NCBI GenBank assembly: GCA_964622655.1
Contig: CAZUSQ010000001.1
Span: 5,427 to 36,115, forward strand
From: an uncultured Methanosarcinales archaeon
Lineage (GTDB): Archaea > Nanobdellota > Nanobdellia > Woesearchaeales > GW2011-AR4
Length of the DNA: 30,689 nt
Direction: 5' to 3'
The first letter of the stretch is position 1. Each line of letters begins with the position of its first letter. Positions 26,338 through 30,281 of this stretch are shown one piece after another. The position numbers and the translations under genes were made by a program. A model generated the notes under the pieces. The model had not been told where the DNA came from. It ran no database searches and saw nothing but the letters and a program-made list of their open reading frames with translations.

Positions 26338-27246
26338 TCAACCACTCAATAGTTTTTTGATACCTTCACCTAACTCAACTTTAGGGTTCCATTTCAGTTC
26401 TTTCTTTGCTTTTGTTATATTAGGACATCTTACATGTGGATCGTCTGTAGGCAATGGTTTAAATACAATTTTGCTTTTACTTTTTGTTATTTTCTTTATT
26501 AATTCAGCTAATTCAAGTATCGTGTGTTCTTCTGGATTACCTAGATTTACTGGCTCATTTATTTTTGATATCATCAGTTTGTATACACCTTCTATCAAAT
26601 CACTTATATAGCAAAAGCTTCTTGTTTGTTTGCCATTTCCATAAACAGTTATAGACTTGTTTTTTGATGCCTGATTTATGAAGTTAGGAACTGCTCTTCC
26701 ATCGTCTTTTCTCATTCTTGGTCCATATGTGTTAAAAATTCTTACAATTTTTGTATCTATTTTATGAATTCTGTGATAAGCCATTGTTAGTGCTTCTGCA
26801 AAACGCTTAGCTTCATCATAACAGCCTCTTAAGCCAATTGGATTTACATTTCCAAAATAGCTCTCTGGCTGTGGATTGACTAATGGGTCACCGTAAACTT
26901 CAGATGTAGAAGCAAGCATGTATTTTGCCTTTTTTGCAAGGGCTAAACCAAGTGTGTTATGAGTTCCTAGACTTCCTACTTTAAGTGTCTGTATAGGTCT
27001 TTTTTGATAGTCTACAGGGCTTGCTGGGCTTGCAAAATGCAAAACAAAGTCCAATTTTTCATTTATGACAATATGTTCACTCACATTGTGATTGATATAT
27101 GTGAAATTCTTATTGTTTCTCAAATGCTCTATATTTTTTAAGTTGCCTGTTATAAGATTGTCCATGGCAATTACTTTATCTAAAAGAAATTCACATAAAT
27201 GGCTACCTATAAAGCCAGCTCCTCCTGTTACCAAAATTGTCTTCAT
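26338..27246 (-). CDS. uxs: UDP-glucuronate decarboxylase (UDP-xylose synthase)
   Basis: [67 protein letters not shown]. Confidence 0.9.
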
Positions 27247-27977
27247 TTTTGTTTGTAATATTTGTTTGCCTTTTCAAGTTGTTCAAGACTTCCAATATCA
27301 TACCATTTTTTATCTGTCACATAAGAGTGTACTTTATCCCTTTTGTGAAGCCATTCAATAAATTTTCCTGCTTTATCGGTGTTGTTGCCTTGAGCAATGT
27401 ATTTTTTAATTAATTCAAGTGTCTTTTTAGTGAACAAGTAAATACCAGTTGAAGCCAAAGTCGATTTTGGAGCAATCGGTTTTTCCTCAAAATTTACGAC
27501 AATATTATTTTCGACTTCAACAACTCCATAATGCCTTGCCAATTCAAAATCCTCTACATCATGAAGTACAATAACATTTGATTTTCTTTTTTTGAAGAAG
27601 TTGACAACATCTGCCAAAGATAACTCAAAGAGATTGTCACCTGCAATAATGATGATGTCATTATCAAGGTTTTTTAGATTTATGGTATAATATATATCTC
27701 CTAAAGCTCCTAGTCTGTCTTGATTACTTTTAGTGCCATCATTTATTATTTCTATGGGTTTTTCTGCATCAAATTCATTTAGCCATTTTTTAAAATTATT
27801 CTTAAATTTATCATTTGTCACAACATAGATTTTATTAATCAATGCTATTTCTTCTAATTTTTTAATTATGTATTCTATTATGGGCTTTCCAGCTACATTA
27901 AGCAATGATTTAGGTGTATTTTCTGTTAGAGGATAAAGCCTAGTTGCATAGCCTGCTGCAAGTATTATTGCATCCAT
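27243..27977 (-). CDS. Sugar-1-phosphate nucleotidyltransferase (NTP_transferase)
   Basis: Intact [24 protein letters not shown] and WYDIG motifs. Confidence 0.9.
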
Positions 27978-29279
27978 CTAAACTACCTCTTTTCTTCCAA
28001 TGCTTAGGTAAGTAAAACCTTCTCTTTTAACTTCATCTTGATTGTAGATATTTCTTCCATCAATTATTAAAGCGTGTCTCATTAAAGATTTTATCCTTTT
28101 TAAATCCAATTCTTTAAATTCATTCCATTCTGTTATTATAACTAAAGCATCTGCATATTTTGCGACTTCATATGGTGTATTGCAATAAATCACATTTTTT
28201 AGAATTTGTTTTGCTTTCTCCATTGCTTGTGGATCATAAGCCTTTATTTTTGCTCCTTCTTTTTGCAATTCTGTTATTATATCAATTGATGGCGCAAACC
28301 TCATATCGTCTGTATTTGGCTTAAATGCTAAGCCTAAAATGCCGATTGTTTTATTTTTGACAATCCCTAGTGCTTTTTCTATCTTTTTTATGAAATGTTT
28401 TCTTTGGTGGTAATTTATTTCCTGCACAGTGCTGAGTAATTTAAAATCATAGCCTAGCTTTTCTGATATTCTTATAAAAGCTTCTGCATCTTTTGGAAAA
28501 CAAAAGCCGCCATAGCCTATGCCAGCATTTAGAAAAGCTCTTCCAATGCGCTTATCGTACCCTATTCCATCTGCTACCTTTTCAACATCTGCGCCAGCTA
28601 ATTCACAAATATTTGCTATTGCATTTATAAAGGAAATTTTTGTTGCTAAGAAAGAGTTTGATGCGTGCTTTATAATTTCTGCACTTTTTATATCTGTAAA
28701 TATTATTGGCGCTTTTAATGGTTCATATAGTTTTTGTATTATTTGCTTTGCTTTCTTGCTCTCACATCCTACTACTATTCTATCTGGATGCATAAAATCA
28801 TTTACAGCGCTCCCCTCTCTCAAAAACTCAGGGTTGCTTACAATATCAAAGTCAACCTTATGAGTGTTGTATGCTCTTATTATTTTAGCAACTTTTTCGC
28901 CAGTTTCTACTGGCACAGTGCTCTTCTCTACTATTAGCTTATAGGAGTCCATTACCTCTGCAATTGTCCTTGCTACATTTTCTACGTAGCTTAAATCAGC
29001 TTCTCCATTACTCTTTGGAGGGGTCCCAACGCAGATAAATATTATTTCAGACTCTTTTATTACTTTTTTCAAATCTGTTGTAAAGTTTAGTCTGCCATGT
29101 TTCTTATTTCTTATAACTAACTCTTCCAATTCAGGCTCGTATATTGGAATAATATTATTGTTAAGTTTTTTTATTTTTTCTTCATCGATGTCAACACATG
29201 TAACATCATTTCCGAGCTCTGCAAAGCACGTTCCTGTAACTAAACCGACATAGCCAGCTCCTGCAATTGCTATCCTCAT
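27978..29279 (-). CDS. ugd: UDP-glucose 6-dehydrogenase
   Basis: GAGYVGL, ICVGTP, VEKSTVPV, SNPEFLREG, KHASNSFLATKISF, GYGGFCFPKD, GLAFKPNTDDMR. Likely start MRIAIAG at 29279. Confidence 0.92.
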   Translation of the reverse strand: MRIAIAGAGYVGLVTGTCFAELGNDVTCVDIDEEKIKKLNNNIIPIYEPELEELVIRNKKHGRLNFTTDLKKVIKESEIIFICVGTPPKSNGEADLSYVENVARTIAEVMDSYKLIVEKSTVPVETGEKVAKIIRAYNTHKVDFDIVSNPEFLREGSAVNDFMHPDRIVVGCESKKAKQIIQKLYEPLKAPIIFTDIKSAEIIKHASNSFLATKISFINAIANICELAGADVEKVADGIGYDKRIGRAFLNAGIGYGGFCFPKDAEAFIRISEKLGYDFKLLSTVQEINYHQRKHFIKKIEKALGIVKNKTIGILGLAFKPNTDDMRFAPSIDIITELQKEGAKIKAYDPQAMEKAKQILKNVIYCNTPYEVAKYADALVIITEWNEFKELDLKRIKSLMRHALIIDGRNIYNQDEVKREGFTYLSIGRKEVV

Positions 29280-29299
29280 AGCCTTTGAAAACAGAAACT

Positions 29300-29309
29300 T
29301 ATTTAAATA
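29300..29309. promoter_or_regulatory. Palindromic TATA element TATTTAAATA shared by divergent ugd and RHH genes
   Basis: Perfect palindrome, 21-30 bp from the ugd ATG and 32-41 bp from the RHH-gene ATG. Confidence 0.6.
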
Positions 29310-29310
29310 T

Positions 29311-29342
29311 CTTACCATTATCCTACTTTATACTACCAATAT
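29311..29342 (+). repeat. Three phased direct repeats, candidate RHH operator
   Basis: cttaccattat / cctactttat / actaccaatat, consensus TACYWWTAT-like, period 10-11 bp. Confidence 0.45.
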
Positions 29343-30135
29343 GAAAGAAAAGATTTCGATAACTATAAACAAAAAAACTTTGCAAGACATAGATTCAATT
29401 ATAGATAATATCTATATAAGGAATAGAAGTCAAGCAATAGAGCATCTTGTCAAAAATGCTTTAGGAGAGAATAAAACTGCTGTAATTCTGCTTGGTGGGA
29501 ATGAAGAGCATTTGAAAATTTCGAAATGGGTTTACAGGCCAACTGCAAAAATAAAGAATAATGCTGTCATTGAATTAGCCTTAAAAAAACTGAGGGAGAA
29601 TAATTTTAAAACAATATTTATTGTTGCAAGGCACAACCTATTGACAAAATTGTTTGAAATGCTGAAAGATGGCGCAAATTATGGAGTGAAGATAAATTAT
29701 ATCGAGGAAAAATCGTCAAATGGCACCGCAGATTCTTTAAGGCTATTGAAAGGAAGGGTTAATGCCAATTTTTTAGTTGTTTATGGTGATATAATTTTCA
29801 GCAAAATAAATATCGAAGAACTTTGGAACGACCATATAAAGCAAAATGCTGTTGCAACAATAATGCTTACAACATCTCCAAAACCTAGCGAAAAAGGAAC
29901 TGTAAAAGTTGAAGGTAATAAAGTGCTGACTTTTACTCAAAAACCAAAAAAGTTTGATATTTATCTTGTCTTTTCTCCTATTTTTGTTACAGAGCCGCAA
30001 ATTTTTGAGTATTCTGGCGCTAGCTTGGAATTTAAGGTATTTCCAGAATTAGCAGAGAAAGGTTTGCTTAATGGACATTTAAGCAGTGAGAAAGAAATTC
30101 ATATCCATACTAAAAAAGATTTAGAGAAAATTTAA
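29341..30135 (+). CDS. Ribbon-helix-helix (CopG/NikR-like) domain fused to a degenerate nucleotidyltransferase domain; putative transcription regulator
   Basis: KISITINKKTLQDID...RNRSQAIEHLV (RHH), followed by TAVILLGG...GTADSL...FLVVYGD...TQKP...SLEFKVFP. Confidence 0.8.
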   Translation: MKEKISITINKKTLQDIDSIIDNIYIRNRSQAIEHLVKNALGENKTAVILLGGNEEHLKISKWVYRPTAKIKNNAVIELALKKLRENNFKTIFIVARHNLLTKLFEMLKDGANYGVKINYIEEKSSNGTADSLRLLKGRVNANFLVVYGDIIFSKINIEELWNDHIKQNAVATIMLTTSPKPSEKGTVKVEGNKVLTFTQKPKKFDIYLVFSPIFVTEPQIFEYSGASLEFKVFPELAEKGLLNGHLSSEKEIHIHTKKDLEKI

Positions 30136-30281
30136 GGTGGACAGCTTTTCCAGGCTCCCGCACTTAAGTGCAGTACGACTGGAAACGGAGGCTTGCTTGA
30201 CTTCCGTGTACCCGCTAAAATGCATATGCACTTTACTTTCGGGATGGGAACGGGTAGAACCAAGCCCCTATGGCCGTCCTT
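30134..30281 (-). rRNA. rrf: 5S rRNA, archaeal type, with a 29-nt insertion in loop C
   Basis: Helix I GGACGGC/GCUGUCC, helix II GGGGCUUG/CAAGCCUC, CCCGUUCCCAUCCCGAA...CACGGAAGUCAAG, helix V UUUCCAG/CUGGAAA, helix IV GCAC-UUAA-GUGC. 148 nt, or 119 nt without the insertion; ends uncertain by a few nt. Confidence 0.95.
30209..30237 (-). other. Putative bulge-helix-bulge intron in 5S rRNA
   Basis: Sense: CCCG-AA|A-GUAAAGUGC-AUAU-GCAUUUUAG-CGGG-UA|C-ACGG. Central 4-bp helix CCCG/CGGG, two 3-nt bulges, internal 8-bp hairpin. Confidence 0.75.

Follow-up and report, generated by a model that had tools for sequence, protein, structure and literature searches.

A candidate archaeal regulator with a NikR-like ribbon-helix-helix head and a degenerate nucleotidyltransferase body, and its putative operator at a UDP-sugar operon

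The gene at 29341-30135 (+) of a 30,689-nucleotide stretch of archaeal DNA (contig CAZUSQ010000001.1; hereafter, the window) encodes a protein of 264 residues plus stop according to the list of open reading frames (ORFs). A ribbon-helix-helix (RHH) head precedes a nucleotidyltransferase (NTase) fold in this protein. The gene is divergent from a presumed operon of ugd (uridine diphosphate (UDP)-glucose 6-dehydrogenase), an intact NTase and uxs (UDP-xylose synthase). Our analysis suggests that the protein is a one-component transcription regulator, which would read phased boxes at the ugd operon and use its dead NTase body as a nucleotide-sugar sensor. We give this reading a probability of roughly 0.6. 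Its parts differ in strength: from the sequences, the protein is likely a DNA-binding regulator of the ugd-NTase-uxs operon, small-molecule sensing through the dead pocket is somewhat more probable than not, and the role of the pathway end product as co-repressor, argued by analogy, is tentative. That the protein binds DNA, which ligand it senses and in which direction it regulates are inferences from computation.

As a candidate for a type of archaeal regulator not described before, the protein is well supported; such a type would be a variant of the RHH one-component regulators and no new principle. Full-text searches of open-access papers and bioRxiv found no description of the RHH-NTase architecture, in agreement with the original prediction, made from the window alone, that no regulator of this architecture is known to have been characterized. 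The DPANN archaea possess tiny genomes with very few recognizable regulators. For the control of their surface-glycan precursor supply, the present case offers a concrete candidate regulator-operator pair to test, consisting of the 264-residue protein and a 28-bp site.

The intergenic region contains a palindromic TATA box, TATTTAAATA, at positions 29300-29309. A putative operator (29309-29336) begins at the TATA edge and occupies the space up to the start codon of the regulator gene. It consists of three direct heptamers, box A (29309-29315, ATCTTAC), box B (29320-29326, ATCCTAC) and box C (29330-29336, ATACTAC), with the consensus ATCYTAC; on the ugd strand, the boxes read GTARGAT. Since the spacings are 11 and 10 bp, the boxes lie on one face of the helix. 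The centre of the TATA box is 25.5 nt from the ATG of ugd (29279), and the same distance is found in most of 46 aligned loci. Archaeal TATA boxes are centred near position -26. Thus, the distance fits a leaderless ugd mRNA.

This distance depends on the start codon of ugd. The real start is at 29279 (MRIAIAG), so that the gap to the regulator gene is 61 bp, and with this start the divergent arrangement and the gap length in the original prediction are correct. A longer reading from 29318 (MVRYLNKF...) begins within the conserved regulatory DNA and was rejected, since six relatives lack this ATG although they conserve the DNA around it. Annotations that use the long start (window 29280-29318) would hide the promoter.

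Alignment of the regions upstream of the orthologs defined a 36-bp element (29302-29337), which has 0-3 mismatches in 15 loci of the genus and 3-5 mismatches in two other genera. The element is unique in the genome of the window, even when nine mismatches are allowed; this genome is of Woesearchaeota type, 1.2 Mb in size and 75% complete. The information profile of the box array was calculated from 46 instances. Loci in many of the more distant genera have, after box C, a second TATA-like box (TTTATATA) that faces the regulator gene; at these loci, the boxes lie between two back-to-back core promoters. This second TATA box is not visible at the locus in the genus of the window. There, the regulator gene is probably transcribed from the one palindromic TATA box as well, and the boxes would be located between TATA and the start site.

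The divergent arrangement of the regulator gene and the ugd operon is kept at 15 of 16 loci of the same genus. It is also found in other genera, where the ugd-like gene has about 40% identity, and the synteny with ugd, which had been proposed as a check, holds across dozens of genera. In five relatives (L013, L021, L024, L025 and L027), insertions of 200-450 bp split the regulator gene from ugd, and the element remains beside ugd. These insertions are GC-rich and hairpin-forming.

The co-occurrence of site and regulator was analyzed in a single sample of 401 genomes drawn from the order. These were searched for the 26-bp core of the site (at most 3 mismatches), for the regulator ortholog (E <=1e-60) and for ugd-like genes. 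The core was detected in 81 of the 401 genomes and in 58 of 257 genera, almost always as one copy per genome; a reversed-pattern control gave 1 hit. The ortholog was detected in 85 genomes. Site and gene were both present in 76 genomes, the site only in 5, the gene only in 9 and neither in 311; because related genomes are not independent, any statistical support would be overstated, and these counts are given without a P value. The tallies of site and ortholog for each family run in parallel. A ugd-like gene was found in 227 genomes, and about 140 genomes possess ugd with neither site nor regulator.

Among the five genomes with the site only, two (G087 and G405) carry it at ugd, right at a contig end. 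Two others (G042 and G175) have 3-mismatch hits with no ugd or regulator nearby, which are probably chance matches, and the fifth (G366) has 2 mismatches. Among the gene-only genomes, G404, G151 and G154 possess versions of the site with 4-5 mismatches in the expected intergenic place, and three others are outliers of 40-44% identity in which the site has diverged further. The close kin G297, G168 and G099, whose ugd genes are 71-76% identical, have no site upstream of ugd. In G003, a genome of the same genus (92% complete, ugd 78%), a TATA box is kept at the right distance without the boxes, and the search for the ortholog gave no match.

In four genomes (G051, G105, G202 and G024), the regulator gene is on another contig and the site remains at ugd. 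For G051 and G105, the region upstream of the unlinked gene was searched and contained no copy of the site. We considered that the conserved site might be mainly the promoter element of the regulator gene itself. This idea was rejected, because the site stays with ugd after insertions and rearrangements and the unlinked regulator genes of G051 and G105 have no upstream copy.

The putative DNA-binding domain comprises residues 1-46 (29341-29478, +). Single-sequence searches gave weak matches: within the first 46 residues, NCBIfam NikR at about 7e-4 and Pfam RHH_8 at 0.011, and for residues 3-46 the NikR structure 2bj1 (E 0.0057). When a profile of 52 N-termini of the family was compared with the PDB, it matched E. 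coli NikR (1q5v, E 1.2e-9), P. horikoshii NikR (2bj1, E 6.4e-7), an RHH antitoxin (8u12, E 2e-4) and CopG (E 0.004). An AlphaFold2 model of the 264-residue protein was built from a 77-sequence alignment, with a predicted local distance difference test score (pLDDT) of 93.5 and a predicted template-modelling score of 0.85. The head in this model has an extended segment (3-9) and two helices (11-19 and 29-41), a beta-alpha-alpha order, at pLDDT 80-89. Residues N28-R29-S30 open helix 2 as the G/N-x-S/T turn of RHH proteins, and S30 is invariant in the family. In 120 family representatives, R29, S30 and E34 are nearly invariant. The beta-strand residues of the present group are K4, S6 and T8.

The RHH pattern that had been seen in residues ~1-41 is therefore borne out by the NikR profile matches and by the beta-alpha-alpha model, and modelling recovered the expected topology for both domains. 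Its sequence places the head in the RHH (MetJ-Arc-CopG) superfamily, nearest to NikR. The NCBIfam NikR models cover only residues 3-46, with scores far under the cut-offs. NikR-type proteins continue with an ACT-like tetramerization domain that carries a His/Cys nickel site, and here the C-terminal 218 residues have the NTase fold instead. Because the ACT-like metal domain is absent, the protein itself is not classed as a NikR. A homodimer prediction with two full-length copies and an alignment gave a score of 0.29 (mark, 0.42), which counts neither for nor against a dimer.

The NTase-fold domain, the presumed ligand sensor, comprises residues 47-264 (29479-30132, +). Pfam NTP_transferase (PF00483) matches residues 47-225 with E 1.6e-21 and 77.5 bits, against a cut-off of 21.2. 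In the Foldseek search with the modelled body, RmlA-type thymidylyltransferases (4ecm, E 4.7e-19), GDP-mannose pyrophosphorylases and the human GMPPA/GMPPB complex were the best matches, with E values of 1e-16 to 5e-19 and template-modelling scores of about 0.75. These matches agree with the earlier assignment of the rest of the protein to the NTP_transferase fold.

The active-site motifs were compared by alignments to RmlA (3hl3) and to the intact neighbouring NTase (27243-27977). The G-x-G-T-R-L signature is replaced by a degenerate G-loop, G52-G53-N-E-E-H-L (29494-29514, +), in which LGGNEEHL aligns with AAGYATRL of the neighbour. The P-K of the neighbour aligns with Y65-R66, and Lys is thus changed to Arg. 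EEKP aligns with TQKP, so that E-K-P becomes Q200-K201-P, and W-x-D-x-G (WYDIG in the neighbour) becomes E252-I-H254-I-H256 (EIHIH, residues 252-256). The motifs GTA (128-130) and YGD (148-150) are retained. The original prediction had listed the same changes in the G-loop, EEKP and WYDIG motifs and the same two retained motifs; its claim that PK becomes RP did not hold. Of the metal and phosphate motifs, D150 and K201 remain and show no variation, H254 stands in place of the second metal-binding Asp, and Q200 in place of the Glu of E-K-P.

Residue constraint was analyzed in 37 orthologs, namely the query and 36 others of 47-90% identity from the fetched loci. The GG of the G-loop is invariant, and the four residues that follow are free to vary. 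At the place of the catalytic Arg, the orthologs have H, R, K, Y, N, S, D, Q, A, M or G. In contrast to the loop, E122 (the position of the base-reading Gln of RmlA), G128, D150, Q200, K201, F211 and S212 are invariant, and H254 and H256 are at least 80% conserved. The wider family was represented by 120 full-length members of 50%-identity clusters. Among these, the loop was canonical (GxG[TS][RK]) in 7, partial in 13 and degenerate or deleted in 100. D150 is nearly invariant in the same set, as is G128 across the family.

These patterns indicate, as far as sequence can, that the catalytic loop is lost and that the body looks like a dead enzyme, not an active PF00483 enzyme. The pseudoenzyme domain of the original prediction is supported by the degenerate loop and by the unconstrained catalytic positions in the orthologs. 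Selection appears to act on the DNA-binding head and on part of the pocket and not on the catalytic loop, because R29-S30, E34, D150 and the pocket positions are conserved while the loop varies. No significant pairwise BLASTP match was found between the regulator and the intact neighbouring NTase. Therefore, the sensor body is not a recent copy of the neighbour.

The same body might sense nothing. In that case, the body of the DNA-binding regulator would space the RHH dimers as an oligomerization scaffold, or would offer a partner protein such as the neighbouring NTase a place to dock. RmlA-type folds commonly oligomerize. The free variation of the G-loop in the orthologs and its complete deletion in many family members would be consistent with such a role, and GMPPA works via a protein-protein complex (PMC11228364). 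However, the base, metal and phosphate positions of the pocket (E122, G128, D150, Q200 and K201), which are invariant in the 37 orthologs, would be dispensable in a mere scaffold, as would D150 and G128, which are nearly invariant in the whole family. We consider a body without any sensing function unlikely, and a pocket that binds a small molecule remains our preferred interpretation.

Paralog groups provide a further comparison. Two or three RHH-NTase paralogs are present per genome of the genus, and upstream regions were fetched for two further groups, B and C. Group B (L084-L093, about 35% identity) was not found in the 75%-complete genome of the window. In the profile alignment, its strand residues, R-T-T, coincide in identity and position with Arg3/Thr5/Thr7 of E. 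coli NikR, which we take to be the DNA-contacting residues in the 2HZV structure. Upstream of group B genes, two ATCATAC boxes lie 10 bp apart between two TATA boxes. The ATCATAC box contains TCATAC, the half-site of the NikR operator GTATGA-N16-TCATAC (PMC7055735). The gene divergent from group B starts with MDRNLALEF/DF....

Group C has the strand residues K-A-S. Its upstream regions contain an AGTATGA-N5-TCATACT palindrome together with phased TAATAC, CTACTAC and ATCATAC boxes. The genome of the window carries a group C paralog of 31% identity with a deleted G-loop (G000:C2:22983-23720; L031:5998-6744). SIS-isomerase and PfkB-kinase genes are oriented divergently to it, with a GT9 heptosyltransferase gene nearby, which suggests that this copy is tied to a heptose pathway.

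The present group (K-S-T) has ATCYTAC boxes, which differ from those of group B at the fourth position. Across the three groups, the boxes appear to covary with the strand residues, as a true regulator-operator pairing predicts. RHH proteins typically bind specific DNA sequences as dimers, with an antiparallel two-stranded ribbon in the major groove; for the present head, the conserved phased boxes, which resemble NikR half-sites and covary in this way, support such binding indirectly. A regulator-operator relationship is supported because the boxes shift with the strand residues and because group B repeats the pairing of residues and half-site known from NikR. A simple recognition code is suggested, in which R-T-T, K-S-T and K-A-S correspond to the fourth box position, and such a code could predict regulons in uncultured organisms.

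The covariation also bears on an alternative in which the boxes are not bound by the protein. On this view, the 36-bp element would act in the core promoter or as an initiator of ugd or would be recognized by a different factor, and the N-terminus would be a mere dimerization handle. Binding of the boxes by the protein is a prediction, the element includes the TATA box, and the genome G014 has the element where the ortholog was not found. Nevertheless, the roughly 140 genomes that possess ugd without the element, among them a genome of the same genus in which TATA is kept and both the boxes and the ortholog were not found, would be unexpected for a ugd promoter element, and the boxes resemble NikR half-sites and change with the strand residues in three paralog groups. 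We regard this explanation as very unlikely.

A bifunctional protein of the BirA, NadR or PutA type, which would act as a repressor and also make an NDP (nucleoside diphosphate)-sugar with a non-canonical loop, is highly improbable, for although D150 and K201 are kept and 7 of the 120 family representatives have a canonical GxG[TS][RK] loop and a PK motif behind the RHH head, the Arg position is not conserved in the ortholog group, the second metal-binding Asp is His, the phosphate-binding loop carries two acidic residues, and an intact enzyme is encoded 1.4 kb away.

Several observations weigh against a nucleotide-sugar-sensing regulator at the boxes. The pocket departs from canonical enzymes, with H254 in place of the second metal-binding Asp and P213 in place of a sugar-contacting Gly. 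A symmetric oligomer would not usually be expected to read three direct repeats. In the same-genus genome G014, which is 91% complete, the site is present at ugd but no ortholog was detected. The census counts come from related genomes, as stated above. Furthermore, the sequencing runs listed as containing the locus are groundwater DNA runs only, with no RNA run among them.

The mechanism that we propose for the regulator is as follows. The RHH heads would dimerize, and each dimer would read one of the three helically phased boxes. The NTase-derived body, which has lost the catalytic loop and kept pocket residues, would act as the sensor of a UDP-sugar of the controlled pathway. The pocket would suit an NDP-sugar better than a nucleoside triphosphate, because the positions that contact nucleotide and phosphate are kept and the loop at the place of the triphosphate is acidic and unconstrained. 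UDP-glucuronate or UDP-xylose as co-repressor is our preferred guess. NikR with nickel and MetJ with S-adenosylmethionine exemplify the co-repressor logic of RHH proteins, and product-dependent repression is proposed by analogy with these and with GMPPA.

Box A would lie at the transcription factor B (TFB) recognition element (BRE) of the ugd promoter, abutting TATA on the side read by TFB, and its occupancy would block the ugd operon. In the other direction, boxes A-C would be downstream of the same palindromic TATA box, and occupancy would shut the regulator gene too. Archaeal regulators that bind on BRE/TATA or just downstream generally repress. Thus, repression of both the operon and the regulator gene is favoured, and activation of ugd from an upstream position is the less probable alternative.

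One sensor might even couple two layers of feedback: the body would bind UDP-xylose or UDP-glucuronate and dock on the active NTase of the operon, and the RHH head would shut the promoter. This analogy-based extension is rather improbable. If it is true, one sensor governs both the inhibition of the enzyme and the control of transcription, and, more broadly, the DPANN archaea would hold a large family of pathway-specific regulators with a simple, readable code from strand residue to box.

The presumed target operon is on the minus strand. Its first gene, ugd (27978-29279, -), matches the N, central and C domains of Pfam UDPG_MGDP_dh and the NCBIfam TuaD-like model with 616 bits, and the NDP-sugar dehydrogenase subfamily model passes. 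The intact sugar-1-phosphate NTase (27243-27977, -; AAGYATRL...PK...EEKP...WYDIG) matches PF00483 over its full length (E 1.5e-40), and its best NCBIfam matches are Arch_glmU, rmlA_long and AglF. The third gene, uxs (26338-27246, -), encodes a UDP-glucuronate decarboxylase (UDP-xylose synthase) that matches the human UXS1 structures 4gll and 2b69 (E 1e-97). From these assignments, the predicted route of the operon is glucose 1-phosphate to UDP-glucose, UDP-glucuronate and UDP-xylose. In two related species (L013:2195-4891 and L021:9101-11041), ugd and uxs contain in-frame insertions of about 450 and 320 residues. The ugd insert is at the catalytic GGFC/FPKD motif and ends with HN followed by C; the uxs insert begins with C after GVRG and ends with GN followed by C. 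These inserts look like inteins.

Orthologs of the regulator were found in 18 of 24 genomes of the same genus with 79-90% identity, and across the order they have 47-71% identity. The identity within the genus is higher than those of ugd (74-83%), the NTase (67-83%) and uxs (77-83%). Named members of the family are from Woesearchaeota, Nanoarchaeota, Micrarchaeota and Diapherotrites. In public databases, they are labelled "hypothetical protein", "NDP-sugar pyrophosphorylase family protein", "NTP transferase domain-containing protein" and, once, "AglF". Such enzyme or hypothetical labels for RHH-NTase genes distort metabolic reconstructions.

Two further observations were made at these loci. 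In one genome (L061:1500-1681, G385:C11), a second copy of the boxes and TATA (1 mismatch) is present far from ugd, flanked by a GatD-like gene and a gene for a class II (Asp/Asn/Lys-type) tRNA synthetase. A 43-codon ORF with CxxC...CxxC follows there, and because its ATG is at leaderless distance from the TATA box, it may be a further member of the regulon. In the window, a 5S rRNA gene (30136-30281, -) abuts the stop codon of the regulator gene in convergent orientation and has 146 nt, against the 120 positions of the model. Several relatives have a 60-68 nt 5' fragment of 5S beside the regulator gene and a full 5S copy about 1 kb beyond.

Among known systems, NikR (E. coli 1q5v/2hzv, P. horikoshii 2bj1) is the closest relative of the N-terminal domain by sequence, and it shares the layout of an RHH head and a C-terminal ligand-binding body. 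The NikR half-site GTATGA/TCATAC (PMC7055735) is one base off the present boxes and identical to that of paralog group B. However, the body of NikR is an ACT-like tetramerization and metal-binding domain and not an NTase fold, and its half-sites are inverted and two turns apart, whereas here three direct repeats are one turn apart.

GMPPA (7d72) has the same fold as the body (Foldseek E ~1e-16). It is a non-catalytic paralogue of the GDP-mannose pyrophosphorylase GMPPB, binds GDP-mannose and restrains GMPPB (PMC11228364). The likeness would be that of an inactive sugar NTase which binds the NDP-sugar of its pathway and exerts feedback on the supply; for the present protein, this is proposed from the sequence. 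In contrast, GMPPA is a eukaryotic protein that lacks a DNA-binding domain and exerts its effect through contact with the active enzyme.

The present proteins share the fold and motif order of RmlA, GalU/AglF and MurU (PF00483), including the GTA, GD and KP motifs. They differ from these enzymes in the lack of the G-x-G-T-R signature and of the second metal-binding Asp, and in the extra RHH domain. A head fused to an enzyme of the regulated pathway is known from PutA (RHH and proline-utilization enzymes), BirA and NadR (a DNA-binding domain and an adenylyl- or nucleotidyl-transferring enzyme), and the present protein likewise joins a DNA-binding head to an enzyme-type domain of the presumed target pathway. 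The enzyme part is active in those proteins, whereas the catalytic loop of the present ortholog group is lost and unconstrained. The members of the wider family with an intact loop may work like PutA, BirA or NadR. An enzyme fold would thus have been recycled as a sensor, and with intact- and dead-loop members in one family, the path from enzyme to regulator is traceable.

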